The notes under the pieces were generated by a model. The model saw nothing but the letters and a program-made list of their open reading frames with translations. It was not told the origin of the DNA and did no database searches. DNA of 64,000 nt, taken from positions 24,732 through 88,731 of the forward strand of contig JBEKML010000002.1 of NCBI GenBank assembly GCA_050008535.1, read 5' to 3'. The DNA is from Minisyncoccia bacterium. Lineage in GTDB: Bacteria; Patescibacteriota; Minisyncoccia; UBA6257; 2-01-FULL-56-20. Positions 572 to 55,020 of the stretch are shown piece after piece (position 1 is the stretch's first letter; the number at the start of each line of letters is the position of its first letter). Position numbers and translations under genes: made by a program.

Positions 572-2743
572 TTATTTTACCATTCCATCGCCCCGCCATG
601 CCTCTACCATAAGCATCGTTCCCGGACGGAAGATGCCGTAGATCTCTTCTGTCACGAACGGCATGAAGGGATGGAGCATTTTGAGCGATGCCAAGAGCAG
701 ATATTCAAGAAGAGCGTAGGATCCGGCTTTTTGCGCGGCATCTCCGTCGCGCAAAGCGATCTTTTCCGCTTCTACAATTTTGTCCGCAAGCGTGTGCCAG
801 ATATAGTGGTAGAGCTTTTCCGCGGCAAGATGGAATTCAAACGCCTCAAGATGCGCCGTTACTTCTGTTTTGAGCGCATCAAGCGCTTCTATCTCCATGC
901 GCCTCTCAATGGTGAATTTTTCCGGGTCCACGGGCGCTCCCTCCGCTGGTTTGTTCATATTGATGAACCGCGCGATGTTCCATATCTTTGTTGAGAAGTT
1001 CCGGTAGCCCCGGATGCGGTCTTCGGAAAGCTTAATGTCGCTTCCGGCCGAGGCGCCGATCACGAGCGAGAGCCGCGTAGCATCCGCGCCATATTTCTCC
1101 GCCATTGCGAGGGGGTCAATGCCATTGCCGAGCGACTTGGACATTTTCCGCCCCTTTGCATCGCGCACGAGGCCGTGCAAATATACTTCGCGGAAGGGGA
1201 CCGTGCCCATAAGACACGTGGACATAAGGATCATCCGCGCGACCCAGAAGAAGAGAATGTCATAGCCCGTTTCCAACAGTGAGTTCGGGAAATAAGTTTT
1301 AAGGTCTTTCGTTTTGTCCGGCCAACCGAAGACCGAGAACGGCCAGAGTCCGGAGGAAAACCAGGTGTCCAGAGTGTCGGGGTCCTGTGTCCATTTGTCG
1401 CCACGCGGCGGTTCAGTGCCAACGTAAACTTCTTCGCCCTTGTACCACACCGGGATCCGGTGCCCGAACCAGATCTGGCGCGAGATGCACCAGTCGTGCA
1501 AATGATCTATCCAGTTGAAATAGATCTTCCCGAAGCGGTCGGGGGTGATCTTCACGGCGCCGCTCGCTACGGCTTCACGCATGAGCTCTTTTGGTGTTTT
1601 TTCTTCGCCGTCCGCTGCCTTGAATTTTCTCTCGACTGCCACGAACCACTGTTTCAAGATCTGCGGCTCAATGATGCCTCCGCCGCGGTTGTTCGTCGCA
1701 ACGCGGTGGGCGTAATGCTCATCCACTTTTTCTATAAGCCCCTTCTTTTTTAATTTCTGGACGATGAGCGGCCGCGCTTTTTTGATGTGCATTCCGGCGA
1801 ACTCGCCTGCGATGGGGAGTAGCTTTCCGTTCAGATCAATGATTTGTTCCGTATCAAGATGGTGCCGTTCGGCGATCTCGAAGTCCGTCGTGTCGTGCCA
1901 CGGCGTGATGGTCATCACGCCCGTCCCGAACGCCATGTCAATTGACGGATCTTTCACGATCGTCGCCTTCACGGGGCCATTGATCCACTCAAGATCAATC
2001 ATTGCGCCGTGCTGGTATTTCTCGTACCGCTTGTCGTCGGGATGCATCACAACGTACTTGTCGCCGAATTTCGTCTCCGGCCGCGCCGTGGCGATCGTGA
2101 ACGGGCCGTATTTCAAGTAATAAAAAGGAGCCGTTTCTTCAATCCACTCCACTTCGTCATCCGAGACCGTCGTTTGCAACTGCGGATCCCAGTTCACGAT
2201 CCGGTCGCCGCGGTAGATAAGGCCCGTTTCGTACATCTTCTGGAATGCCGCGCGGACGGCGCGCTCGCGCGTGGCGTCGAGCGTATACGTTTCGCGGCTC
2301 CAATCAAGCGACGCACCCATCCGTTTCACCTGCTTCACGATCGTATCGTGGCTCTTTTTTGCGTACTCATGCACGCGCCGCAAAAATTCCTCCCGGCCGA
2401 GATCGTAGCGGCTTTTCTTTTCTTCTTTTGCGATCATTTTTTCCACGCGCGATTGCGTGGCGATCGCCGCATGGTCCGTGCCTGGGACCCAGAGCGTTCG
2501 CTTGCCGCGCATGCGATTCCATCGGACGAGAATATCTTCGATCACAAGCATCGCCGCATGTCCCATATGCAATTCTCCCGTCACATTCGGCGGGGGAAGT
2601 ATTATAGAGAATGGTTCCGCGTCCGCGGCCGTCACGCCTTTTTCCACGCATACATCCGGATTGAAATATCCCGACCGCTCCCATGCGGCCGCAATGCGGG
2701 ACTCCACTTCTTTTATGTCATAGCGCGGTTCCATGGCTGGCAT
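572..2743 (-). CDS. valS: valyl-tRNA synthetase (short form, 723 aa)
   Basis: PPPNVTGELHMGHA (HIGH-type) and KMSKSLGNGIDP (KMSKS) class I motifs in ValRS-typical context. Confidence 0.88.
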   Translation of the reverse strand: MPAMEPRYDIKEVESRIAAAWERSGYFNPDVCVEKGVTAADAEPFSIILPPPNVTGELHMGHAAMLVIEDILVRWNRMRGKRTLWVPGTDHAAIATQSRVEKMIAKEEKKSRYDLGREEFLRRVHEYAKKSHDTIVKQVKRMGASLDWSRETYTLDATRERAVRAAFQKMYETGLIYRGDRIVNWDPQLQTTVSDDEVEWIEETAPFYYLKYGPFTIATARPETKFGDKYVVMHPDDKRYEKYQHGAMIDLEWINGPVKATIVKDPSIDMAFGTGVMTITPWHDTTDFEIAERHHLDTEQIIDLNGKLLPIAGEFAGMHIKKARPLIVQKLKKKGLIEKVDEHYAHRVATNNRGGGIIEPQILKQWFVAVERKFKAADGEEKTPKELMREAVASGAVKITPDRFGKIYFNWIDHLHDWCISRQIWFGHRIPVWYKGEEVYVGTEPPRGDKWTQDPDTLDTWFSSGLWPFSVFGWPDKTKDLKTYFPNSLLETGYDILFFWVARMILMSTCLMGTVPFREVYLHGLVRDAKGRKMSKSLGNGIDPLAMAEKYGADATRLSLVIGASAGSDIKLSEDRIRGYRNFSTKIWNIARFINMNKPAEGAPVDPEKFTIERRMEIEALDALKTEVTAHLEAFEFHLAAEKLYHYIWHTLADKIVEAEKIALRDGDAAQKAGSYALLEYLLLASLKMLHPFMPFVTEEIYGIFRPGTMLMVEAWRGDGMVK

Positions 2744-2855
2744 CGATAATATCTGGATTATAGGGGATTTTTTTGCGGAAGGGAAACTATTTCGCGCCGG
2801 ACAGCGTATACTATATAATAGGTAAACTACAAAGGTCGTTTTAATTTCTCATTTT

Positions 2856-3164
2856 ATGGAAGAACAAAAAGATAAGAAGGTTTGCGGGTGCGGCGGGTGT
2901 ACCTGTATGAGCGGGTGCGGATGTGGGTGCGGGTGCGGTATGAGCGGGTGCGGCCATCGGCATGGCCGGATCATCCTGCGGATCGTGATTGCGATCATCG
3001 TAGTCGTCGTGGCGTTTTCGATCGGCGTAAAGCTCGGCGAACTCCGAGGGGCGTACAATGGTGGCTACTACGGGGAATACGGCCGTGGCTACCGGATGAT
3101 GGGGTACCCGATGATGAATGGTTACTACGGGGCGCCGACGGCAACGTCGACACCGACGAAGTAG
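2856..3164 (+). CDS. small Cys/Gly-rich membrane protein (N-terminal CGCGGCTC..GCGCGCGCG..GCGH cluster, one TM helix, Gly/Tyr-rich tail)
   Basis: 102-aa ORF; repetitive GC codon tract; followed by clean rho-independent terminator at 3185-3217; upstream TATACT/TATAAT box. Confidence 0.5.
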   Translation: MEEQKDKKVCGCGGCTCMSGCGCGCGCGMSGCGHRHGRIILRIVIAIIVVVVAFSIGVKLGELRGAYNGGYYGEYGRGYRMMGYPMMNGYYGAPTATSTPTK

Positions 3165-3184
3165 GCGGGCGAGCAAGGCAAGCC

Positions 3185-3217
3185 AAAAAACCGGAGCTTC
3201 ACGCTCCGGTTTTTTGT
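3185..3217 (+). terminator. rho-independent terminator (ccggagc-ttcac-gctccgg + T7)
   Basis: Perfect 7-bp GC stem followed by TTTTTTG directly after stop of 2856..3164 ORF. Confidence 0.75.
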
Positions 3218-3245
3218 TGCGCCACTGTGTTATATAATAAAGGCA

Positions 3246-4082
3246 ATGGCAGACGAGGCCCCGAAAGCGGCAAAAATAGCGATGGATCCGGTCGGTGCGC
3301 TCTTTACGGGCGCGTGGCGGCGCTATGGAGAGCGTTTCTGGACGCTCGTGTGGATATTTTTCATACCAAGCATCCTCCTTTTATTAGGACGATTGTTTTT
3401 GGAAGGAGGAACGCCGCCGCGGATACTTGTGGGCGGTATTCTTTCATTGATTGGTTCGCTCGTCTCCATCCCGGCTTCACTTGCACTTGTGAACGCTCTC
3501 GCGCACGGGACGGATTTTACGATGTCGTATCGCGTGGGGCTGAAGCTTTTCTGGCCGGCGGTGTGGATATGCATACTAGACGCTCTCGCGGTCGTCGGCG
3601 GGTTTGCGCTTTTGATCGTTCCCGGTATCATCTTGAGCGTCGCGCTTATGTTCGCGAATTACACGCTCGTCGTTGAAGACAAGCGCGGAATGCATGCGCT
3701 CATGCAAAGCAGGGGATACGTAAAAGGATATTGGTGGGCGATCTTGGGGAGGGGTATCCTCCTCGGCGCGATCTTTTTGGGCGTGCTCCTCCTTGTGTAT
3801 CTGCCGCTCGCCCTGCTTCTCGGCAAAACGATCGGCAACGTGATATACCTCGTCCTCCTTTTATGCTTTACGGCGTTCGGCGTTTGCTACTCCTACGAAA
3901 TGTACGCAAATCTAAGGAGGCTCAAAGCGGGCGCAATGGAGGAGGCAGTAAAAGGCAAAAATGGATTTTTGAAGGTCTGCATGGCGGTCGGTGTTCTTGT
4001 TGTCCTCGTTATTCTTTTTCTCGTCGTCATCGGGGTGTTGTGGACTGGCGTGCCACAATCATCAAACGTCATCAAATCGTAA
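3246..4082 (+). CDS. polytopic membrane protein, unknown function
   Basis: 278-aa ORF with ~6 hydrophobic segments; extended -10 (TGTGTTATATAAT) ending 7 nt before ATG (leaderless-type). Confidence 0.6.
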   Translation: MADEAPKAAKIAMDPVGALFTGAWRRYGERFWTLVWIFFIPSILLLLGRLFLEGGTPPRILVGGILSLIGSLVSIPASLALVNALAHGTDFTMSYRVGLKLFWPAVWICILDALAVVGGFALLIVPGIILSVALMFANYTLVVEDKRGMHALMQSRGYVKGYWWAILGRGILLGAIFLGVLLLVYLPLALLLGKTIGNVIYLVLLLCFTAFGVCYSYEMYANLRRLKAGAMEEAVKGKNGFLKVCMAVGVLVVLVILFLVVIGVLWTGVPQSSNVIKS

Positions 4083-5151
4083 GATCTCCCCGGGCCGCAA
4101 GGCGGAATCGTTTCTTTCTAAGATGCGCCAGGTAGCCGGCGGCGCCGATCATTGCGGCGTTGTCCATGTTGTATTTAAAGTCGGGGACGAAAAATCCGGC
4201 GCCCACGAGGCCTGCCGCGCGGGCAAGGGCTTTTCGAAGGTGCTTGTTCGCCGCCACGCCGCCAGAAAGGAGAATTGATTCCGCTCCGCGTTCCTGCGCG
4301 GCCCTCTTTGTTTTTGCGACCAAGACGTCCACTGCCGCCTGCTCGAATCCCGCGGCCACATCCGCTTTTTCCTTCGCACTCGGTGCGCGCTTCATGTCCC
4401 GGAGATAATAGAGGACCGCGGTTTTCAAGCCGGAGAAACTGAAGTCGTAGTTCTTGTCGGTAAGCATCGGCCGCGGGAAGGTGATGGTAAAAGGATTTCC
4501 CCGCGCGGAAAGCTTCTCTATTTCCGGGCCGCCGGGGTAGGGGAGACCGAGCAGCCGCGCCACTTTATCGAATGCTTCGCCCGCCGCGTCGTCGCGCGTT
4601 TCGCCGAGCCGCCGCCATTTTGCGAGAGATTCCACTTCCAAGAGGATCGTGTGTCCGCCTGAAACGATGAGCGCGACGGCGGGGAAGATCACCTTCTGAA
4701 TAAGGGCCGACGAGTAGGCGGTGGACGATCGGGAGGGCAAGAGGAAGCTATAGAGGTGCCCCTCAAGATGGTTTGCGCCGACAAGCGGTTTCTTATGTTT
4801 TTTTGCGAGTTCTTTTGCAAAGCCGATACCCGTCCAGAGCGCCGGTTCGAGTCCGGGGCCGACGGTCACCGTAATAAGATTTATCGAGCGCCACAGGCGC
4901 GCTTCCTGCGCGGATCCCGGCGCTCCAAACATCTTTTTATAGAGCACGGGAAGATTTTTGAGATGTTCGCGCTTCGCGAGGTTCGGCACCACGCCGCCGA
5001 ACGGCCGGTGGATCTTTATCTGCGACGCGACCAGGTTTTTATCTATTATAAAACGCGGCATGGCACCGCCCCGCGCGTGCAAGCCGCCCGTCGCGCGGAG
5101 GAGCGCAATGCCGGTCTCATCACAAGAAGTTTCGATCGCAAGAATTCTCAT
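4072..5151 (-). CDS. tsaD: tRNA N6-adenosine threonylcarbamoyltransferase TsaD (Kae1/YgjD family)
   Basis: MRILAIETSCDETGIALL N-terminus and SGGVAANKHLR motif typical of TsaD. Confidence 0.9.
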   Translation of the reverse strand: MRILAIETSCDETGIALLRATGGLHARGGAMPRFIIDKNLVASQIKIHRPFGGVVPNLAKREHLKNLPVLYKKMFGAPGSAQEARLWRSINLITVTVGPGLEPALWTGIGFAKELAKKHKKPLVGANHLEGHLYSFLLPSRSSTAYSSALIQKVIFPAVALIVSGGHTILLEVESLAKWRRLGETRDDAAGEAFDKVARLLGLPYPGGPEIEKLSARGNPFTITFPRPMLTDKNYDFSFSGLKTAVLYYLRDMKRAPSAKEKADVAAGFEQAAVDVLVAKTKRAAQERGAESILLSGGVAANKHLRKALARAAGLVGAGFFVPDFKYNMDNAAMIGAAGYLAHLRKKRFRLAARGDLTI

Positions 5152-5280: not shown

Positions 5281-5910
5281 ATGAAAAACATAGTGATGGT
5301 TCTCTTGTTGGCGGCGGCATCGCTGTCCGCCCAACACACGATTTCGGTGTTCGGGCACACGCCCGGAATCGATCTCCGTATCCTCAACGACACAACAGAC
5401 AAAGCTCCGCTCCAACTCACGGTGAACAGCCGTGATGTCCGTGGGTTCCTGCTTCCCGGCATGGACCCGTGGAGAGGCCACTACGGATCAGGCTACGGGG
5501 ACGTCCCGATCGTGATCCGTGCGTGCGCGGCGATCGCGGAACGCACCGTCAATCTTGCCCCGCCACGGTGGGCAGCGGACGAGGGGTTGGTGGGCGGACT
5601 TGCACTGACCAAGGAGTATCTTGCAGGTCAACCATCCGAACCGGACCTGAAGAAACGGGTTGAGCAACTCGAAAAGAAGCTCAGCAAGCGCCTCGGCCAC
5701 AGGGAGATGATCGCAGAGCTTCACGACTGGTTCAATGCCGTGAAGCATCTCGGCATCAACCGCAGTGTCCAAGTTTGCGGGAACCCCGTGACCCTCACGG
5801 CCTTAGTGCATGTCCAATACAACCTGTACGAGCGTCGCACTGTGATGCTCGTGGTCCGTGGAGATCGCAAGCACGGCTACCGGGTGAATGGACCCAGGGA
5901 CGCCTATTAG
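5281..5910 (+). CDS. secreted hypothetical protein (N-terminal signal peptide)
   Basis: MKNIVMVLLLAAASLSAQ signal-like N-terminus; no recognisable family. Confidence 0.5.
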   Translation: MKNIVMVLLLAAASLSAQHTISVFGHTPGIDLRILNDTTDKAPLQLTVNSRDVRGFLLPGMDPWRGHYGSGYGDVPIVIRACAAIAERTVNLAPPRWAADEGLVGGLALTKEYLAGQPSEPDLKKRVEQLEKKLSKRLGHREMIAELHDWFNAVKHLGINRSVQVCGNPVTLTALVHVQYNLYERRTVMLVVRGDRKHGYRVNGPRDAY

Positions 5911-6144: not shown

Positions 6145-6615
6145 ATGTACATATGGTTGACGGCCAAAGGCGAAGAGACGCTTCGGCAACTCAAGACGGA
6201 AGGCAGAATCGGGGAGCTGAAAATCGAGACTCACAGGAACTCGGGCCTGCGATATGTCCCGGTTTCAGACGAGATCACGGATCCGACCGCTACGCTGATC
6301 CCGCAAAGCGTGATTGATCACGTGACGCTGGACGGAAGAATCCAAGAGGATCTCCGGCCGCAAGGAATCTACGTGCGGGGCGGCGCGACGGCGCAGGTGG
6401 AGACCGTAAGGAACGTTGTTGGGGGCTACGGCAACAATTCGCCTATGGTTGATCGCTACCAGATGGTCCGCGTTGTCGCCAAAACCGTGAGGGCGGCGAG
6501 GGCGATTTATTCGAAGGTCCGCTCCGGAGAACTCAAGCCGAAGCACAACTGGACGGCGGGTGCTGACCGCTCGGGGGTCACCGACGCTGCTGGTGCCGAG
6601 ATCGGCGATCAGTAA
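6145..6615 (+). CDS. hypothetical protein
   Basis: 156-aa ORF with strong promoter and AGGAG Shine-Dalgarno 6 nt upstream of ATG; no family recognised. Confidence 0.55.
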   Translation: MYIWLTAKGEETLRQLKTEGRIGELKIETHRNSGLRYVPVSDEITDPTATLIPQSVIDHVTLDGRIQEDLRPQGIYVRGGATAQVETVRNVVGGYGNNSPMVDRYQMVRVVAKTVRAARAIYSKVRSGELKPKHNWTAGADRSGVTDAAGAEIGDQ

Positions 6616-6945: not shown

Positions 6946-7008
6946 ATCGCAGCAGAGTGCCGCATCCTTGCTATAATATAATAGAGTCGTATATTTTGAA
7001 AGGTCGGT

Positions 7009-42897: not shown

Positions 42898-45800
42898 CTA
42901 CGGGATCTCTATCCGATTGGATCCTGATACATTGACGCTCGTCGTGACATTCACGCTATTTAATGGTCCCGCGCCTCCTCCCTGGCACGAAAGATTGTAC
43001 GTCGCGGCTTGCGTCGGGGAGACCGACAAGGTTCCTCCTGCCGGGTTCACTGAAGTGCCGTTTATGGCGCATGAAACAGTGTTTGTGCAGCTCCACGAGA
43101 GTACTGATGATTGCGGCGGGACGATCAGCGTGGGGCTTGCGGAGAAGGTGCAACTCGGCGCAATAACGGTGATCAATACGGAGTCCGAGGCGCCGCAGGC
43201 ATCCGTCGCTGTTAGTTGGTATAAACCTGGCTGGGAATATGAGACGGACCACGAATCACCGGCACCCATAGACCATGATGGGTCCGTAGGCCCCGTCGAG
43301 GTCCATGAAAAGTCCCCACAGCCTCCTGAAGCGGTAGCGGTCACGATGCTGCCCACGGGCACGGTGGTGGCAGGAGTTATGGAAATAGAAGGAGGAGAGG
43401 GTGCGTTTACCGTTATTGGCGTGGCTCCTGATTTTGTCGGGTCCTGAACGCTCGTCGCTTTTATAACGGCCTGCATGGATCCCGCAGCCAGCGCGACCCT
43501 GGCGGGCAGCCACAGTTCTTTCGCGGCGCTTATGCTTGCGGGTGCGGTATAGACGCCGCTTGCGTTAATTGATCCGCCGCCACTCGCGACCGACCAGGTT
43601 ACCGCAGAACTGTAACTGCCAGTGCCGCTAACAGTCGCTGAGCACATCGAGGTTCCTTCGAGCGGGACCGAAGTCGGGCTACAGGAGACGGAGACGGAGC
43701 CTATTGTGGACGCGGGCGGCGCCGAAGAGACGGAAATATTGCACGTTTTCGAGCTCGCGCCGCTTGTCACCGTCGCTGAATAATCGCCGGATGTGTTGTA
43801 GGTCGTCTGGAAGAAAGATCCATTCCAGGTGGAGGGGCTCGCCCCGCTTGAGGTCCAGCTGTAGGTGCCGTTCCCGCCGCCGGCACTGAAGGAAACCATG
43901 TCGCCCGTCGCCGAGGATTGATCCGCAGGGCTGCAGGTGAGTGCCACCGGAGTAGGTGTGACCGAAAGGGTTGCACTGTCCGAGGCGCTCCCGCCGGGGC
44001 CGGTGCAGGTCAGGGTGTAGGTATGCGTGCCGACCGTTGAAGGAGAGATCACTCCTTGCTGGTTTGAACCCACCGATTGCGCACCCGACCAATCGCTCTC
44101 TGCGGGGGAGGCGGAGGCGGTACAAGCGGTTGCGTTCGTGGTGGTCCAGAAAAGCGAGGCCGATTGCCCCACAGTGATGGGAGAAGGAGAGACCGAAAGG
44201 GAAACGGCGGGGGTCGTGCCGGTGCTCACGGTAAAGTCAACGTCGTTGGACTGGACGTTCGGCGAAGAAAATTGCGCCCACTCCGTCCAGGAACCAATGG
44301 TTCGTCCCGAAGCCTAGAGCGGAGCAGTTGGTCGGTCCATTATGAGTGGCGCAGAACGAAAAGGGCGTATTGGGGATATTTGAAGTAAGGTTGAGCGTCC
44401 ATGCCTGTCCGACTGTGAAATTACCGCTTGTGCCGCCGTTGATAGTGAGCGATGCGGTCGCGGCCGGGCTTACTACAAGGGTTGCGTTACTCGAGGCGCT
44501 CCCGCCGGGGCCGGTGCAGGTCAGGGTGTAGGTGTAGCTGCCCGTGGCGGCGGGGGAGACCGAGGTGGAGCCGCTCGTTGATCGCGAACCGGACCAGGCA
44601 TTCGACGCGGTGCAGGCGGTTGTGTTCGCGCTTGACCAGGTGAGCGTTGCCGATTGCCCGGCGTTGATGGAGGAAGGAGAGACCGAAAGGGAAACGGCGG
44701 GTTGTCGTTTCGCCCTTAAAAGCGATGCTGGCAACGTATGTCCCTGCAGTACTGGGAGGAGTTGTAGATATCGTCACATTACTCGATAGCCCCTGGTTAA
44801 TTGGCGAAATATTGGATAAAGAAGTGGACAAAGAAGATTCCTGAATCCATCCGCTCGAGGGCCCGCTTATATAGGTTACGTTCGCGCTTAAGCCGCCCAA
44901 AGTTGATCCTTGTGTGCCGCTATTCGTGATCGTTACCTGCCCGCTTGTATCGGATGGACTCAAAGAAAGTGATTCGGGGCTTACCGCCATTTTTGCTAAG
45001 GGATCCCACGAAATAATAAAATTGGCGGTGAGTTGGGAAGGGGAAAGTGTTAAGGTGTCCGCCGGGGAAATACTTACCGCATTTGCGGTTGGGATCGAGG
45101 AAAGAACATTCTTCAAAAGAGCGAACGAACTTGGCGTGTGGGTATCGTGCAAAGCAACATCCCGGTTTTCTATTGAGTGCAATGTATACTGGGTTTGATC
45201 AGATGGCGTAGCGGCGTTTGCTGGCAGGGTATACTGGTCATTATTTGCCCTCAGGCCAGTGTAAGTTCCTTGATAAGCATTGTCGCAGGAACCACCGTGC
45301 CCGGAACAGGGATCGTTGCCGGTGGGAAAAGCTGTGAAGTGCCAACTTGCAGGTACCGACAGATCGGTTTTGGAGTTCTTCGAAGAAACGGTGATCGTTC
45401 CATTTGTGCCGCCGACCGGGTCACATGTGCCGGGCGTTGAACCGGGGGTGTACGTTATGCCGCCCGTGAGGCCCGTAGCTGCCGTGTAGCAATAGGTTGC
45501 ACTCTGGGCATCTACCCAAGCTGACCCGCCGCCCCATTTCCCCGAACCGTTTGGCTTACATGCATTTATTACCGTAACAACGAGCTGATCGCCGGGATTT
45601 ACAACTGCGCTCCCGCTGCCGCCATTCCCACTGCCCGCCCCTCCGCAGCCGGAACCGGCAACATCGTCCGGGCCGCACGTGCAACCATTATAAGAATAAT
45701 AAAAGGTCCCGATTTGTGCGGATCCATTATCATCAAACGCAGCAACGCCAACATCTGCGGTGGTATTTGGATAAATGCGAATATTTACATAACCGCCTGG

Positions 45801-46085
45801 ATCGAGCCATGTCCCGGCGGGGATGCCTACCTGCGTGGCCGTTTCGGTCCATCCCGCAGGCAATGAATCTCCCCCCGCAGAATGGCACGTTTCCCCGCCC
45901 TTGCTGTATCCTCCCCAGTAGAAAAGTGAACAAGTGGAATTCCACATATTGGCGTGACTTACGAATCCGCACATCGTAGCCCCGTCGGAGCATGTCGCCA
46001 ATGCCGCGAAGGAAATTGACGGCGAAACAAGCGCAAGGGTGAATGACGCGACTGTCAAAATAAAAATGGTTTTCTGTGGTTTCAT
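42898..46085 (-). pseudogene. giant secreted Ig-like-repeat surface protein, fragmented into three consecutive ORFs (46085-44487, 44734-44237, 44229-42898)
   Basis: Signal peptide at 46085 end; frame change between ...AFKGETTT and QPAVSLSVSPSS (~44715) and stop/restart at 44237/44229, both at boundaries of a repeated TTPAVSLSVSPS...YTLTCTGPGGSAS module; Big_2-like segment in last ORF. Confidence 0.5.
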
Positions 46086-46088
46086 TGT

Positions 46089-46910
46089 TTATGAATTGGG
46101 TACTTTTGAACTCACAATAATGTTTGTCTGCCCTTTCGCTTCTCCTTGGATCTGAACGTTTATCTGCTCCTTCGTTGAACTATTTTCCGCGAAGATGGTT
46201 GCAAGCGCGGAGGTGTTCGTCTTGGTCATGATCTGCCATGACGCGCCGGAGAAGAGACCAAGGTATTGGTTATAAAGTGTGCTTACCGATTCGCTGCTTT
46301 GGTATATCGCAGCGGTCGTGTGAACACCACTTGCGGGATCGGGATTGTCGCTTGAACTTAAAATTTTCGCCGAAGGATCAACGACAAGCTTTCTGGGGAA
46401 TCCTGTTACGAGCGTACCTTGCTGAACGGTCAGATGAGCGAATTGAGGCGTCGCGGTTCCCGCAATCCCCGTCCCGTAACTTACGGTGACCTGCGACCCC
46501 GACCCCTGGACGACGATTGCAACGCTCACCACGGAGGAAGCATTCTCCGCGTAGAGGCCCCGGGAGTTTTTATATTCCGTGACTTTGTTTGTGATCGGCC
46601 AGCCATTCGCTGGAAGGTATGCAAGATATTCATTATAGATGTCCGCGACAGAACTGGAGGAATTGAACGAAACGGTATACTGGTTCGTGCTCGTGCTGTA
46701 GTTTATACTATAACTTTGCGAAATGCGCGCGAGGGAATCAAGAACGAGCTCTTTCGGAAATCCGGGCGTGAGTTGGCCGCTCGGCGCAAAAGCGGGCGTG
46801 CCCATTGGCACCGGCCGCGTTGACGAGAAATACCACCAAAAAGCAAGAAGTATGACGATTACGACAGCGATCGCAATAAAGACAATTCGTGCTCGCTTGT
46901 CCATTTCCAT
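46089..46910 (-). CDS. membrane-anchored protein with internally duplicated domain
   Basis: N-terminal TM helix; two homologous halves (FPKELVLD...YNEYLAYL...GWPI / FPRKLVVD...YNQYLGLF...SWQI); 4 nt upstream of adhesin start. Confidence 0.6.
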   Translation of the reverse strand: MEMDKRARIVFIAIAVVIVILLAFWWYFSSTRPVPMGTPAFAPSGQLTPGFPKELVLDSLARISQSYSINYSTSTNQYTVSFNSSSSVADIYNEYLAYLPANGWPITNKVTEYKNSRGLYAENASSVVSVAIVVQGSGSQVTVSYGTGIAGTATPQFAHLTVQQGTLVTGFPRKLVVDPSAKILSSSDNPDPASGVHTTAAIYQSSESVSTLYNQYLGLFSGASWQIMTKTNTSALATIFAENSSTKEQINVQIQGEAKGQTNIIVSSKVPNS

Positions 46911-47024
46911 TAGACTTATTATACCAAATCCTCCAAAAAAGAAATAGTGTGGATAGAAAACGGCCCCAGCAGCGCACAGTGCGCACCGCTGGGGCCGAAG
47001 TTGGTTTGGTTCCCGCCAGGGAAC

Positions 47025-48980
47025 CTAGAAGAGCGTAACGGTCAGCGACACCGGTTGTGAGGTCGTGCCGCCGGGACCCTTGCATTTCAGGGTCCCTTTG
47101 AGGGTCATTGGAGGCGTCCAGAGAGGTACCGCAATCGTCACGGAGTTGTTGACGGGTTGCTTGCCCTCGATGTCGCCCGACGCAACGCAGGAATCTGCAT
47201 CGGTCGTTTTCCACGTGATGGTCGCTGTCTCTCCTGCGCGAACTTTCTCGGGGGAGACGGAAAGGGTGATCGTCGGCTTTGGCGAAGCGGATTCTGATCC
47301 GACATCCGCGGGAGCGTCATCAGTAGGGTTCCTCGCGATGAAGATCATATTCCCATCAGAGCCGGGACGGGGACGACGGGAAACGTTTGCCATCTGCCCG
47401 CTACTGCCGCCACCGCTCATCAGAAGCGCTTGGCACTCGTTCGCCGCACACGCATACATCTGTGTGCCATCGGGCGAGACACCAAACCCAACTGCGAGCA
47501 GGTTGCTCGTTACTGACAGGTTCGTGGCCGTACCGGTCTTCGCGTCCACCGAGATGAACCGCGAGAGGCCGGCGACGGGGTCGGCGATAGCAACAAGAAT
47601 ACTGCCGTGCGTTTCGTCCGCTGCGATCCGGATAGGGGACAGTCCATCCCCCAGGATCGCACGGAGATCCACACGCTTGGTCTCCTTCATCGTCGCGATG
47701 TCAAAGATGACCAGTTGCTTGTCGGGCTGGGCAAGGAACGCCCCAGTGCCGACCGCGGGTCCCGAATTGAAGGCGGCGAGTTGCCATCCGCCAGCAGTCG
47801 CGCTGGCATCGGCTCCTACCTGGGTGATCCCGGGGAGGAACAGAAATCCCTTGGTGCTCATGTCGGGAACCGAGATTCGCCAAAGGGTTGAATCCCCGCG
47901 CGAGTAGACGATAGCATCCAGCTCTTTGCCGAGTTGCGCCATCGTGAGCGACCACGGATAGCTGCCGACCGACGTTGAGATCATCGATGGCGTGTCTTGG
48001 GCTAGATCAAAACTCGATACTAGCCCATCTTTGGGTTGAGTGACGCAGGCATAACCACTTCTGGCCGCTACGGCCATGGTCTGCTTACCATTGTATGCCG
48101 TGTGCACTCCGCTGGCGTTCGTCCAATCAACCACCATACTGCCAGCGCCCGCGCGTACGATTGACTTCGTTGTTTCGTCGTATGCTATGCCGCTGCCCCC
48201 TTCCGTCAAAAACCCATTCGGGGTCACGGTGGTTCCCGGGCCGACCAGGAATTTCCAGATATGCTGTTGCTTGTCGTCGGTGAGTGTTCCCTGTTGCAGT
48301 TGGAATAGCTTTCCTGACGAATCAAGCGCGAGTGTGTTCTGGTTCCCCTGGTAGCCGAAACTCATCGAGTTCGAGGTGCCTGCCGGACACTTCACTGACC
48401 AGCGGTAGAACTGCGGCGGCGACCAGCTAAAACTGAGGGTCACCCAGATTTTGTTGGGGGCCGTTCCTTCCAAGAGGGTCAGATCCACCCATGGATCTGC
48501 CAGGTGCAGCACGCACCCTGCGGCGAACCCAGACCCGTTGATCTGGATATTGCCGATGACCGATCCCCCGTCATCAAGATAGACCACATTCGGCGTGATC
48601 GAACTGATTACTGGGACCGGTGGCGTCACCGTGAGTGTCATTGAGGCGCTCTTTGTCGGGTCTTGCGTGGATGTCGCTGTTACCACGACCGTCATTGACG
48701 TCGTCGTGGACGGGGGGGTGAACAGCCCGCTTCCGGTGATCGTGCCCGCGCTCGCGGACCATGTCACCGCGGAACTGTAATTCCCCGTACCCGTTACTGA
48801 CGCCGAACATTGGGATGTCGCACCGCTTACGATCGTCGCCGGTGAGCACGTGATGCCCACCGATGTGATGGTAATGGGCGTGGGGGTGACTCCGCCGCTG
48901 GAACTTCCACCACCACTGGGGCAACCCGTCCCTGCCACGATGGCAAGGACGAGGATAGTCCAAAGAACACTCGTTTTCAT
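47025..48980 (-). CDS. lipoprotein-like surface protein: Big_2 Ig-like domain + beta-propeller-like region + C-terminal Ig-like domain
   Basis: Signal + LAIVAGTGC lipobox-like Cys; ITCSPATIVSGATSQCSASVTGTGNYSSAVTWSAS Big_2 motif; C-terminal domain resembles adhesin repeat. Confidence 0.65.
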   Translation of the reverse strand: MKTSVLWTILVLAIVAGTGCPSGGGSSSGGVTPTPITITSVGITCSPATIVSGATSQCSASVTGTGNYSSAVTWSASAGTITGSGLFTPPSTTTSMTVVVTATSTQDPTKSASMTLTVTPPVPVISSITPNVVYLDDGGSVIGNIQINGSGFAAGCVLHLADPWVDLTLLEGTAPNKIWVTLSFSWSPPQFYRWSVKCPAGTSNSMSFGYQGNQNTLALDSSGKLFQLQQGTLTDDKQQHIWKFLVGPGTTVTPNGFLTEGGSGIAYDETTKSIVRAGAGSMVVDWTNASGVHTAYNGKQTMAVAARSGYACVTQPKDGLVSSFDLAQDTPSMISTSVGSYPWSLTMAQLGKELDAIVYSRGDSTLWRISVPDMSTKGFLFLPGITQVGADASATAGGWQLAAFNSGPAVGTGAFLAQPDKQLVIFDIATMKETKRVDLRAILGDGLSPIRIAADETHGSILVAIADPVAGLSRFISVDAKTGTATNLSVTSNLLAVGFGVSPDGTQMYACAANECQALLMSGGGSSGQMANVSRRPRPGSDGNMIFIARNPTDDAPADVGSESASPKPTITLSVSPEKVRAGETATITWKTTDADSCVASGDIEGKQPVNNSVTIAVPLWTPPMTLKGTLKCKGPGGTTSQPVSLTVTLF

Positions 48981-49179: not shown

Positions 49180-49251
49180 GCCGGAGTAGCTCAATGGCAG
49201 AGCAATGCTTTCGTAAAGCAGAGGTTGGAGGTTCGACTCCTCTCTCCGGCT
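49180..49251 (+). tRNA. tRNA-Thr (CGU)
   Basis: Identical to tRNA-Thr(UGU) at 41257 except anticodon arm (...GAGCAATGCTTTCGTAAAGCAGAGG...); anticodon loop TTCGTAA. Confidence 0.8.
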
Positions 49252-49259
49252 CCACTATA

Positions 49260-49622
49260 ATGAAGATAATGCGAGGAAGAGATGTTTCGAGCGGTAGTCT
49301 TTTTGGCGAATCGGGGCCGGGAGAAGGAGGCCCTTTGGCGCCAGGGTACCACTTCAACGAGGGGGGAGAAATAATTGATGATAAGGGGGATGTCTATAAC
49401 GGTGACTATACGCTGAAGCGCAAGGCGCTCGATCCGTATTTCGAAAAGGCGCTTAACTCGGTTCGCGAGAATCTTCAGAACGAAGGAAGAAATGAGCCGG
49501 AAGAATTTGTGAGACAACTTGCCCGCATAGAAGCGGCGCAAGCGAGGGCGGAAGATAAGAGAAAAGAAAAGGAACAGAAACGCGCGGAAAGGGCAAGAGC
49601 GCGGGAAGCGAAGCAGAATTAA
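49260..49622 (+). CDS. hypothetical protein with Lys/Glu/Arg-rich C-terminal tail
   Basis: 120-aa ORF starting 9 nt after tRNA; ORF-track start 49194 lies inside the tRNA. Confidence 0.45.
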   Translation: MKIMRGRDVSSGSLFGESGPGEGGPLAPGYHFNEGGEIIDDKGDVYNGDYTLKRKALDPYFEKALNSVRENLQNEGRNEPEEFVRQLARIEAAQARAEDKRKEKEQKRAERARAREAKQN

Positions 49623-49630
49623 AGATAACC

Positions 49631-50702
49631 ATGAAAGAAATCGAGAACCTTGAAGCATTGCAGTCCGAAGCCCGCCGGCTGGGCGGGCGTCTTTGACCTT
49701 GCGGCAAAAGAAAAAAGAATAGGGGAGTTGGAGGCGGAGATGGCGTCCACAGTGTTTTGGAAAAATCGCGAGGCGGCGGATGAAAAGATCCGCGAACTCG
49801 GCATTCTCAATGACGTCGTAAAACGCTACCGTGAAATTGAGAGCGGCATCGCCGCGCTTGAACGCGGACGCACGGCGGGCGCGGGCGCCGACTCCGGTGC
49901 CGCCGGCAATCTTGACGAAGGAACATTCTACGAGCTTAAAAAGAAATTCAGGGACTTTGAACTGAAGCAGCTTTTCACGGGACGGTACGATGCGCAAGCG
50001 GCGGTGCTTTCTATCTATCCGGGCGCGGGCGGCGAGGATGCGGAAGATTGGGCGCGGATGCTCGGCCTCATGTATGAAAATTACGCGAAGCGGCGCGGAT
50101 GGAAAATACGGGTGGTCGACGACAATATCCGTTCGCGCACGATCGAAATAAAAGGGGAGCATGCCTATGGGTATCTAAAAAAAGAATCCGGCGTGCACCG
50201 GCTCGTGCGCATCTCCCCGTTCTCGCCGAAAAAACTGCGGCATACTTCATTCGCGCTTATTGAAGTAGTTCCCGACCTGCCGCCGCTTGAAGAGTCAAAA
50301 TTGCAGATCCCCGAAAAGGACCTGAAAGTTGAATTTTATCGTTCGGGCGGTCCCGGCGGACAGAACGTGAACAAGGTGGAAACGGCCGTGCGCGTGGTGC
50401 ATGTGCCGACCGGACTCGCCGTGAGCTCGCAGGCGCAGCGGTCACAGGCCCAGAACCGCGAATATGCGCTGAAACTTCTGAAAGCGAAACTTTTCCACCT
50501 CATGGAAAAAGAAAAAGTGAGCGAGATCAGCGCCCTGCGTGTGAAGGTGAAGCCGGAATGGGGGAACCAGATCCGTTCCTACGTATTAAACCCCTATCAA
50601 TTGGTAAAAGACCACCGCACCGAAGTAGAAACAGCGAAGGTAGAAGGTGTTTTGGCGGGCGATCTGGACCTTTTCATTGAAGCGGAACTGGAAATGTTAT
50701 AG
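49631..50702 (+). CDS. prfB: peptide chain release factor 2 with programmed +1 frameshift (frame 0: 49631-49693, shift at CTT TGA C 49691-49697, frame +1 to 50702)
   Basis: Frame-0 MKEIENLEALQSEARRLGGRL then in-frame TGA at 49694; +1 frame continues DLAAKEKRIGEL...SGGPGGQNVNKVETAVR (GGQ motif); GGGCGGG upstream of CTTTGAC. Confidence 0.9.
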
Positions 50703-54261: not shown

Positions 54262-55020
54262 ATGCCGCAAATTTCCCTTCGCGCGGAAGAGATTTTTCAC
54301 ATCGGGAGCTTCCCGGTGACGAACGCAGTCCTTTTATCCACGATCGTACTGGTACTCCTTGCGGTGTTCGCCGTAGCGCTGCGGCGGAAACTTTCCTTCA
54401 TACCGGGCATGGTCCAGAACGTGATGGAGCTTATTATAGAGGGGGCGCTCTCGCTCATGGACTCGGTGCTTGGCAACCGGAAAACCTCCGAAAAATATAT
54501 GCCGATCGTTTTTACGGTATTCCTTTTCGTCCTGTGCTCCAATTGGCTCGGCCTGTTCCCGGGCGTGAGTTCGGTCGTAGTGCGTGAGGGAGCGGAAAGC
54601 GTGCCGCTCCTGCGCTCTCCCGCGAGCGACCTGAACTTCACCTTGGCGCTCGCCTTGATCGTGGTCACCTTCGTGAATGCGTTCGGCGTGGCGGCGGTCG
54701 GCCTGCGGAAGCGCCTCTCGGTATTCTTCAATTTCAAGGGGCCGATAGATTTTTTCATCGGCATCCTTGAACTTATCTCGGAATTTGCTAAAATTATCTC
54801 GTTCTCGTTCCGTCTCTTCGGGAACGTATTCGCGGGCGAGGTGCTCCTGGCCATCATGTCGTTCCTCGTGCCATACCTCGTGCCGCTCCCTTTTATGTTC
54901 CTGGAAATCTTCGTGGGGTTCATTCAGGCATTCATCTTCGGGATGCTCACGCTGGTCTTCGTCGCTATGGCGGTGGCCGAGCATGGCCACGAGGAAATAG
55001 AAACAGCAAAGGTCGGTTAA
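54262..55020 (+). CDS. atpB: ATP synthase F0 subunit a
   Basis: RLFGNVFAGE motif with essential Arg; 5-6 TM; ATG at 54262 (ORF-track start 54172 is upstream extension). Confidence 0.9.
   Translation: MPQISLRAEEIFHIGSFPVTNAVLLSTIVLVLLAVFAVALRRKLSFIPGMVQNVMELIIEGALSLMDSVLGNRKTSEKYMPIVFTVFLFVLCSNWLGLFPGVSSVVVREGAESVPLLRSPASDLNFTLALALIVVTFVNAFGVAAVGLRKRLSVFFNFKGPIDFFIGILELISEFAKIISFSFRLFGNVFAGEVLLAIMSFLVPYLVPLPFMFLEIFVGFIQAFIFGMLTLVFVAMAVAEHGHEEIETAKVG

Follow-up and report, generated by a model that had tools for sequence, protein, structure and literature searches.

A widespread family of small membrane-anchored, Cys-rich or metal-binding-like proteins, represented in a Minisyncoccia genome

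A stretch of 64,000 nucleotides from a Minisyncoccia bacterium (contig JBEKML010000002.1), hereafter the window, encodes a small membrane-anchored protein, Cys-rich or metal-binding-like in character, that is real, widespread and cleanly defined, and whose function we infer. The gene is a 102-codon ORF with an ATG start on the forward strand (2856..3164, stop codon at 3162-3164), and its bitopic, 102-aa product carries a Cys/Gly belt, a His/Arg belt, one transmembrane (TM) helix and a Gly/Tyr-rich tail with two Met-Met pairs. Tentatively, at a probability of about 35%, this design points to an N-in/C-out, self-associating, membrane-anchored buffer, sensor or hand-over protein for soft metals (Cu(I)/Zn(II)). 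Given the family-wide partition of Cys to the inside and Met to the outside, metal handling appears to be the best available idea among the functions first considered, namely metal sequestration, redox and low-complexity assembly.

The translation is exactly the sequence quoted in a preliminary description of this DNA, and the parts named there are all present: 9 Cys and 11 Gly among the 24 positions of residues 10-33, one hydrophobic helix (residues 37-70 in AlphaFold), and a Gly/Tyr/Met-rich tail, found in the translation as GGYYGEYGRGYRMMGYPMMNGYYG. An antisense frame (2841..3176, 111 aa) and a +2 frame (2882..3676, 264 aa) are likewise open, here and in all homologs, in what looks like an effect of composition, so that an open frame alone is no proof of coding at this locus. 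The gene is counted as real because it has full-length homologs and pairwise dN/dS values of 0.16, 0.07 and 0.09, with synonymous sites near saturation (pS 0.57-0.72); strong purifying selection acts on the 102-aa protein. The N-terminus (MEEQKDKKVC-C--C-C), helix and tail are all retained in two full-length relatives, at 61% and 50% identity. The public gene call (P0001, 74 aa) begins at the internal Met29 and loses the Cys tract. The MEEQK start is kept in relatives, and because the first codons differ only synonymously between genomes, the true start is 2856 and not Met29.

The search for homologs that the preliminary description had proposed was productive. An alignment-seeded indexed search yielded 27 proteins, and a profile search run exhaustively over 1.84 billion cluster representatives yielded 1,294 clusters at E<=0.001 and 621 at E<=1e-10, with members nearly all of 90-140 aa that are unnamed or labelled 'hypothetical protein' and have no Pfam domain and no fusion. 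The family was given a working definition from alignment A3: 90-140 aa; R42, F54, G57xxxG61 and K59/E62/[KR]64; Cys/His ahead of the helix; and at least one MM in a Gly/Tyr tail. All residues of this definition are present in the window protein, which matches the family HMM at 8.9e-23, and the same HMM run over the 64 kb finds the gene in single copy. The window protein matched no Pfam family at E<=10, Pfam and NCBIfam searches over 150 members gave nothing beyond noise (0/150 matched metallothionein Pfam models at E<=0.1), PHROGs and PADLOC yielded no family for the window protein or the members searched, and a PDB profile search returned TM-helix noise alone (e.g., chemokine receptors at E>0.2). 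These results agree with the earlier statement that the protein resembles neither classical metallothioneins nor bacteriocins. What matches there were in the family scans, such as SGP, CoxIIa and CYYR1, were rejected as weak TM or low-complexity noise.

GTDB species representatives were scanned with a degenerate DNA pattern covering ~38% of the family, and matches were then checked with the HMM, giving a sample of members and not a census. Among the 120 pattern matches listed, 7 were confirmed as family members (one each in Paceibacteria, Doudnabacteria, Azambacteria, an 827-kb 'uncultured bacterium' chromosome and an unclassified MAG, and 2 in 'Patescibacteria group' MAGs), and of the ~113 matches listed from other phyla none was confirmed by the HMM. 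So far, among members confirmed in named genomes, the family is seen only in the ultra-small Patescibacteria/CPR or in unclassified MAGs. Genome contigs gave no match to peptide patterns of the three closest sequences, and 0/26 pattern matches on viral contigs were family members. The family is unannotated and, as far as our literature searches reach, undescribed; it fits the known pattern that protein families enriched in CPR are for the most part membrane or surface proteins whose function is unknown (PMC6744442).

The gene forms a conserved monocistronic unit that has a promoter-like box and a terminator to itself, as follows from its upstream boxes and from the hairpin and U-tract found at all seven loci tested. 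It and valS (572..2743, -) are arranged head-to-head, and the 112 nt between them contain, on the forward strand and recognized from sequence only, the -10-like boxes TATACT (2807-2812) and TATAAT (2814-2819); an equivalent hexamer is present at six homologous loci (L001, L003, L004, L007, L009 and L042). A leader box, AAAGGTCG (2831..2838, +), is located 11 nt past the -10 box and 17 nt ahead of the ATG. This 8-mer precedes the family gene without a change in at least 9 genomes, including one in which the gene is not adjacent to valS (L010), with a spacing of 6-12 nt from the -10-like hexamer across genomes. It also precedes atpE and DoxX within the window and is common to the family gene and atpE in two genomes, and is a candidate lineage-specific leader motif common with atpE. 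Its place ahead of atpE raises the suspicion that it may promote translation. No conserved pairs were detected in RNA folds of the leaders, no operator-like palindrome was found upstream of the gene beyond the AT-rich -10 region, and Rfam detected only tRNAs over the whole window; neither the gene nor valS is preceded by an Rfam riboswitch or leader.

At the 3' end, the strong intrinsic terminator reported earlier was confirmed by folding: A6-CCGGAGC-TTCAC-GCTCCGG-T6 (AAAAAACCGGAGC-TTCAC-GCTCCGGTTTTTT; 3185..3215, +), 21 nt past the stop, forms a hairpin with a perfect 13-bp stem and a U-tract (z = -3.5; 0/200 shuffles equally stable) and, being symmetric, is possibly bidirectional. A hairpin and U-tract come right after the stop in 7/7 homologous loci (L001, L004, L006, L007, L009, L010 and L131), with sequences unrelated among them, so that the function is conserved and the sequence is not. 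Together with purifying selection, more than 1,000 homolog clusters and the upstream -10-like box, this upholds the proposal that the gene is probably a real transcription unit. A simple pattern scan for terminators overlooked the hairpin at 3185-3215.

Family members begin with a polar N-terminus (M-[E/D]-E-x-K-[K/N]). The Cys/Gly belt that follows in the window protein (codons 10-33; 2883..2954, +) has its 9 Cys arranged as C-x-C-x-x-C-x-C and then CGCGCGCG, and contains an in-frame repeat, (GCGGGT)x4.7, at 2911-2938, with an 11-mer in four copies. In close relatives, indels fall exactly at this hexanucleotide repeat and give 9, 7 and 5 Cys, so the repetitive GC tract is a coding microsatellite that alters the number of Cys-Gly units. 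The window protein lies at the upper extreme in Cys count, with 9 compared to a family median of 4 (mode 3-5, range 0-10). Across the family, Cys is found at 16-39% per position between -10 and -24 from R42, and CxC, CxxC and CxCxxC are present in 120, 93 and 49 of the 150 members, respectively; a regular subfamily has G-C-x-C-x-x-C, and a few members have no Cys belt (P0113 and the member at L069). Cys counts are even in 82 proteins and odd in 92 (p = 0.50), and this lack of an even-number bias argues against structural disulfides. Column frequencies then define a His/Arg juxtamembrane belt and a conserved Arg (H34-R-H-G-R38 ... R42; 2955..2981, +), corresponding in the family to a His/Gly/Trp belt with His at 24-46% per position between -4 and -8 from R42. 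R42 itself is present in 144/150 sequences, with basic residues alongside. The Cys and His belts are layered in order beside the membrane, and no Cys/His compensation is detected across the family (rho = -0.02).

The TM helix and its interfacial motif (codons 39-64; 2970..3047, +) were delimited by AlphaFold and column counts, and comprise F54, G57xxxG61, K59, E62 and R64. The AlphaFold model of the window protein, built with 150 sequences, places the helix at residues 37-70, with pLDDT >90 for about residues 41-60, and the column counts (n=150) are 146 for F54, 150 each for G57 and G61, 112 for K59, 128 for E62 and 127 for K/R64; the family layout includes a juxtamembrane K-x-G-E-x-K/R motif. 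Within the helix, conserved positions recur with a periodicity of 95 degrees per residue (p about 0.008) and define one conserved face made up of R42, G/A46, I49/L50, V53/F54, G57 and G61, and the helix is uniformly hydrophobic, with Cys at 1.0% and Met at 2% of TM residues. The Gly/Tyr-rich tail (3048..3131, +) is predicted to be disordered (pLDDT <50) and carries two Met-Met pairs, MM1 at 3096-3101 and MM2 at 3111-3116. MM dipeptides number 328 in the family vs 67±8 in shuffles, a five-fold enrichment in the tail, where methionines occur almost only as adjacent pairs, usually R-MM and P-MM, the first ~19 residues past G61 and the second ~13 further. The protein ends in a Ser/Thr/Pro/Ala-rich segment (APTATSTPTK; 3132..3161, +), in which P94 is at least 90% conserved in alignments A2 and A3. 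Over 161 sequences, the N side is 12.4% Cys, 8.2% His and 7.5% Met and the tail 8.8% Met, 9.1% Tyr and 19% Gly, with 4.5 Cys per protein on the N side vs 0.04 in the tail. For the whole family and for the G-C-x-C-x-x-C subfamily, AlphaFold is confident of the helix alone, and the Cys belt and tail are predicted to be disordered.

These features suggest how the protein may work. Its N-terminus would be cytoplasmic and its tail outside, a topology favored by the positive-inside rule (net flank charge of +1.9 plus about 2 His on the N side vs +0.55 on the C side) and in agreement with the one-sided confinement of Cys and with the Ser/Thr/Pro-rich end. The conserved helix face with its invariant GxxxG suggests self-association or docking to a partner. 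By self-association, a number of thiolate/imidazole belts would come together on the inner face of the membrane and could there form a metallothionein-like cluster that binds the soft metals Cu(I) or Zn(II); outside the cell, the tail with its thioethers (MM), its Tyr and an occasional His may bind the same metals more weakly. Such a protein would buffer, sense or hand over metal while anchored in the membrane; it would be neither an enzyme nor, because the helix is uniformly hydrophobic, a pore by itself. Cytoplasmic Cu(I)/Zn sites use thiolates and extracytoplasmic ones use Met and His, and the partition of thiolates inside and thioethers outside appears to mirror this known Cu(I) biology. 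CxC, CxxC and CxCxxC motifs are common in metallothioneins, and with an adjacent His belt they look typical of thiolate/imidazole metal sites. Apo-metallothioneins are disordered without metal, and so, as predicted by two independent models, are the Cys tract and tail. Met-rich domains are described as periplasmic Cu(I) binders in a paper that also describes the Met motifs of Ctr1 (PMC11840665), and PacL1 is a precedent for a small bitopic metal-binding membrane protein (PMC9374683).

By analogy, the family would be closest to a membrane-tethered metallothionein in its working, nearest to CYSTM and PacL1 in architecture and nearest to Ctr1 in spatial logic; the window protein belongs to none of these known systems. 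Metallothioneins (SmtA/BmtA and the Neurospora-type Cu(I) proteins) likewise have a Cys/Gly-rich tract free of aromatics with CxC and CxCxxCxC motifs, and C10-G-C12-G-G-C15-T-C17 of the window protein matches the C-x-C-x-x-C-x-C motif of SmtA. Against what we take to be the Neurospora Cu-MT sequence, the window protein has 50% identity over 22 aa, a compositional resemblance. Metallothioneins are soluble with a Zn4 thiolate cluster fold, whereas the window protein has a central TM helix; unlike them, the typical family member has 3-5 Cys, and a His belt, TM helix and Met-pair tail are added. CYSTM proteins are small, stress-associated, tail-anchored membrane proteins of eukaryotes that form dimers, have links to Cd/Cu tolerance, and contain a Cys-rich element, one TM helix and Gly/Tyr/Pro-rich low-complexity sequence, with 5-6 Cys inside the C-terminal helix and an acidic residue after it (PMC12853963). 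The window family likewise combines a Cys-rich element, one TM helix and a low-complexity region, with E62 in the place of the acidic residue, but it is found in CPR bacteria, its helix is central and nearly free of Cys, its Cys lie in a soluble belt ahead of the helix, and there is no match to the CYSTM Pfam model (PF12734).

PacL1 is a bitopic membrane metallochaperone/scaffold of about 90-100 aa, restricted to Actinobacteria and always encoded in a P1B-ATPase operon, with an N-terminal TM helix, Glu/Ala repeats and a disordered cytoplasmic part bearing a metal-binding motif (C-terminal DLHDHDH) (PMC9374683). Unlike PacL/DUF1490 (PF07371), the window family has no Pfam match, no adjacent P-type ATPase in 19 contexts, no N-terminal TM helix, no Glu/Ala repeats and no C-terminal D/H motif. 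Extracytoplasmic Met-rich segments, as in CueO, PcoE/SilE and CusF, act as a flexible low-affinity Cu(I) 'sponge' (PMC11840665). Those segments have MxM, MxxM and HxxM in soluble periplasmic proteins, whereas here two MM pairs sit at fixed offsets in a membrane-tethered Gly/Tyr matrix. MxM or MxxM is the canonical Cu(I) motif, from which adjacent MM pairs differ. Ctr1 follows the same spatial logic as the window family, with external Met motifs, GxxxG packing within the membrane and an internal Cys/His motif; unlike Ctr1 (PF04145), with its three TM helices, a pore-lining MxxxM in TM2 and GxxxG in TM3, the family has one uniformly hydrophobic helix, and the two have no sequence similarity. A more specific form of the metal model, which we regard as quite improbable, is a minimal single-helix, CPR-specific metal relay, in which a glycine-zipper-type homo-oligomer would couple external Met-Met capture of Cu(I) or another soft metal, by transfer or signalling, to a cytoplasmic Cys/His cluster. 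If true, the relay would be a functional Ctr1 analogue made from a ~100-residue protein; we know of no copper importer in CPR organisms.

Downstream of the gene are a UPF0259/YciC-like multi-pass membrane protein (3246..4082) and tsaD (4072..5151, -). With EF-G/EF-Tu, L2, SecY, ATP synthase, DnaE, RecG, a type IV pilin and a number of large ORFs that match nothing in Pfam, the window as a whole has the look of a CPR housekeeping core. Among 19 distinct contexts of the family gene, valS is head-to-head in 9, inside a VIT1-HSP20-PrsW-valS synteny block, and TGT follows the gene in 4; the remaining contexts adjoin FtsZ, MiaA, YceG, ApbE/MFS, XseB, a histidine kinase, a glycosyltransferase, HtrA and PBP1/YkuD/LemA. 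The valS adjacency looks like inherited synteny rather than functional linkage. No conserved operon partner was found across the 19 contexts, nor any adjacent metal transporter, metallochaperone or metal regulator, the neighbors being housekeeping or envelope genes, and guilt by association failed. This absence of adjacent metal genes counts against the metal model, as does conservation that is best in the helix and juxtamembrane motif and not in the putative ligands. The existence of Cys-less members means that the belt is perhaps accessory. Also on this side are the lack of Cys/His compensation, the non-canonical MM pairs and the AlphaFold models, which contain no preformed metal site.

Some of the same observations would suit an envelope or surface scaffold, a somewhat unlikely reading in which the conserved core of helix, K-x-G-E-x-K motif and Gly/Tyr/MM tail anchors at the cell surface a disordered Gly/Tyr segment of low complexity that possibly self-associates or interacts with the wall, and the Cys/His belt is an accessory oligomerization or stabilizing element. 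Conservation is highest in the helix and juxtamembrane motif, some members have no Cys, and neighbors other than valS are often envelope or division genes, namely FtsZ (L032), YceG/MltG (L069), PBP1/YkuD/LemA (L133), HtrA/PG_binding (L132) and a glycosyltransferase with an mraZ-PBP cluster (L006); this neighbor signal is weak, since envelope genes are common in small CPR genomes. There are also weak compositional matches to Gly/Tyr-rich families (sulphur globule protein, Fungus-induced protein), and CPR-enriched families are mostly membrane or surface proteins (PMC6744442). A scaffold would, however, not account for a tail from which Cys is strictly excluded, for Cys and His belts in layers or for the specific MM pairs.

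The single conserved helix face with its invariant GxxxG, in a small, single-copy protein, would also be expected of an accessory subunit or regulator that docks through this face to a larger membrane complex (transporter, protease, kinase or ATP synthase), as other bacterial small membrane proteins do. The AAAGGTCG leader held in common with atpE in two genomes fits as well, and may mean co-ordinated or high expression. We nevertheless consider such a subunit unlikely, for the 19 contexts reveal no operon partner that is conserved, the gene always forms a monocistronic unit ended by a terminator of its own, and the Cys/His and MM features are left without explanation.

Enrichment in Cys, Met and Tyr alike could instead mark a redox or oxidant sentinel whose oxidizable residues, Cys on the inner side and Met and Tyr on the outer, are sacrificed or used for signalling, in organisms lacking glutathione-type buffers. 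DoxX, a thiol-stress-linked membrane protein family, carries the same leader motif in the window, but no Msr, thioredoxin or peroxiredoxin partner is nearby, the family's sources appear to be mostly low-oxygen groundwater or sediment metagenomes, and the His belt and ordered layout suit coordination better than scavenging, which together make a sentinel improbable. A membrane-anchored Fe-S or single tetrahedral Zn site ([2Fe-2S], [4Fe-4S] or Zn(Cys)3-4), built per monomer or dimer from 3-5 Cys plus His, would match the modal Cys count and the regular G-C-x-C-x-x-C subfamily; it is highly improbable given Cys counts from 0 to 10 with unconserved spacing, no Fe-S assembly context, and AlphaFold models without knuckle or ribbon even in that subfamily. 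Finally, that the ORF is not a gene but a GC-rich non-coding repeat open by chance and without homologs, which the preliminary description had named as the way it could fail, is rejected, with next to no chance of being right: other frames are also open and the tract does hold a hexanucleotide repeat, but homologs exist, dN/dS is 0.07-0.16, the architecture is common to more than 1,000 homolog clusters, and start, promoter box and terminator are all conserved.

A considerable part of bacterial diversity belongs to the CPR/Patescibacteria, whose genomes measure 0.6-1 Mb, and to our knowledge almost none of their lineage-specific proteins has been experimentally characterized. The gene call at Met29, which loses the whole Cys belt, is a case of mis-annotation of a small protein, and alignment A3 with its HMM offers a ready family definition. 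As a single-copy protein under strong purifying selection, represented by more than 1,000 clusters and absent from Pfam, NCBIfam and PDB, it is probably important for CPR biology, and its Cys-inside/Met-outside design offers a concrete, cheaply testable metal-handling hypothesis for CPR membranes.

The gene at window positions 2856..3164 (+) encodes a 102-aa single-pass membrane protein, and conservation among its homologs shows that its true start is 2856. P0001, the JGI public gene call for exactly this locus (2940-3164, 74 aa), begins at internal Met29 and lacks the entire Cys belt, the Cys/Gly tract of codons 10-33. Within this tract lies an in-frame hexanucleotide microsatellite, (GCGGGT)x4.7 (2911-2938), that codes for Cys-Gly units, and indels here among close relatives (giving 9, 7 and 5 Cys) suggest that Cys number in the family protein varies by slippage. 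Two divergent proteins, P0113 and a member at about 1552-1890 (-) of locus L069 from another genome, retain the conserved helix, K-x-G-E-x-K motif and R-MM tail with no Cys belt; the His belt is also absent from the L069 member, and P0113 has His only. Two further ORFs overlap the family gene, one antisense (2841-3176 (-), 111 aa) and one in the +2 frame (2882-3676 (+), 264 aa). The equivalent frames are open in all homologs examined, which fits a composition artefact better than overlapping genes.

In loci L001, L003, L004, L007, L009 and L131 of other genomes, a synteny block made up of a VIT1-like gene, small ORFs, HSP20, PrsW protease and valS, noted upstream of valS, is conserved 5' of the family gene; the family proteins of these genomes are just 35-60% identical, and TGT or tsaD usually follows 3'. 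In L019, a 3.4-kb contig, the family gene adjoins a single 668-aa frame (1408-3411 (+)) in which the N-terminal part of a class-I tRNA synthetase (residues 14-473) is joined to a histidine-phosphatase domain (465-635); fusion, assembly chimera and frameshift are all possible explanations. Downstream in the window is a UPF0259/YciC-like gene (3246..4082), and because a perfect TATAAT (3233-3238; noted span, 3233-3248) stands just 7 nt 5' of its ATG, a leaderless or near-leaderless mRNA is suggested. Two nearby ORFs (5281-5910 (+), 209 aa; 6145-6615 (+), 156 aa) have no Pfam match. Elsewhere, an otherwise housekeeping region holds a run of large ORFs at 42898-48980 (-) and 49191-50162 (-) (443, 532, 273, 651 and 323 aa), which may be lineage-specific surface proteins; the four scanned against Pfam (443, 532, 651 and 323 aa) gave no match at E<=1e-5.

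The linear 8-mer AAAGGTCG stands 17-39 nt 5' of the start codons of several genes, with an A/U-rich leader after it. It occurs in the window at 2831-2838, 6999-7006 and 55008-55015 and outside it at L009 8493 and L006 8100, and precedes the family gene in L001, L003, L004, L007, L009, L010, L042 and L019. In all, it precedes the family gene in at least 9 genomes and atpE, within the atp operon, in 2; the other genes that have it encode DoxX and a signal-peptide protein. Family loci contain 14 sites versus ~4.4 expected, 11 of them 14-39 nt 5' of an ORF start, and no conserved RNA structure was found at these leaders. A possible role for the 8-mer is that of a translation or leader element, specific to the lineage, that serves abundant membrane proteins.
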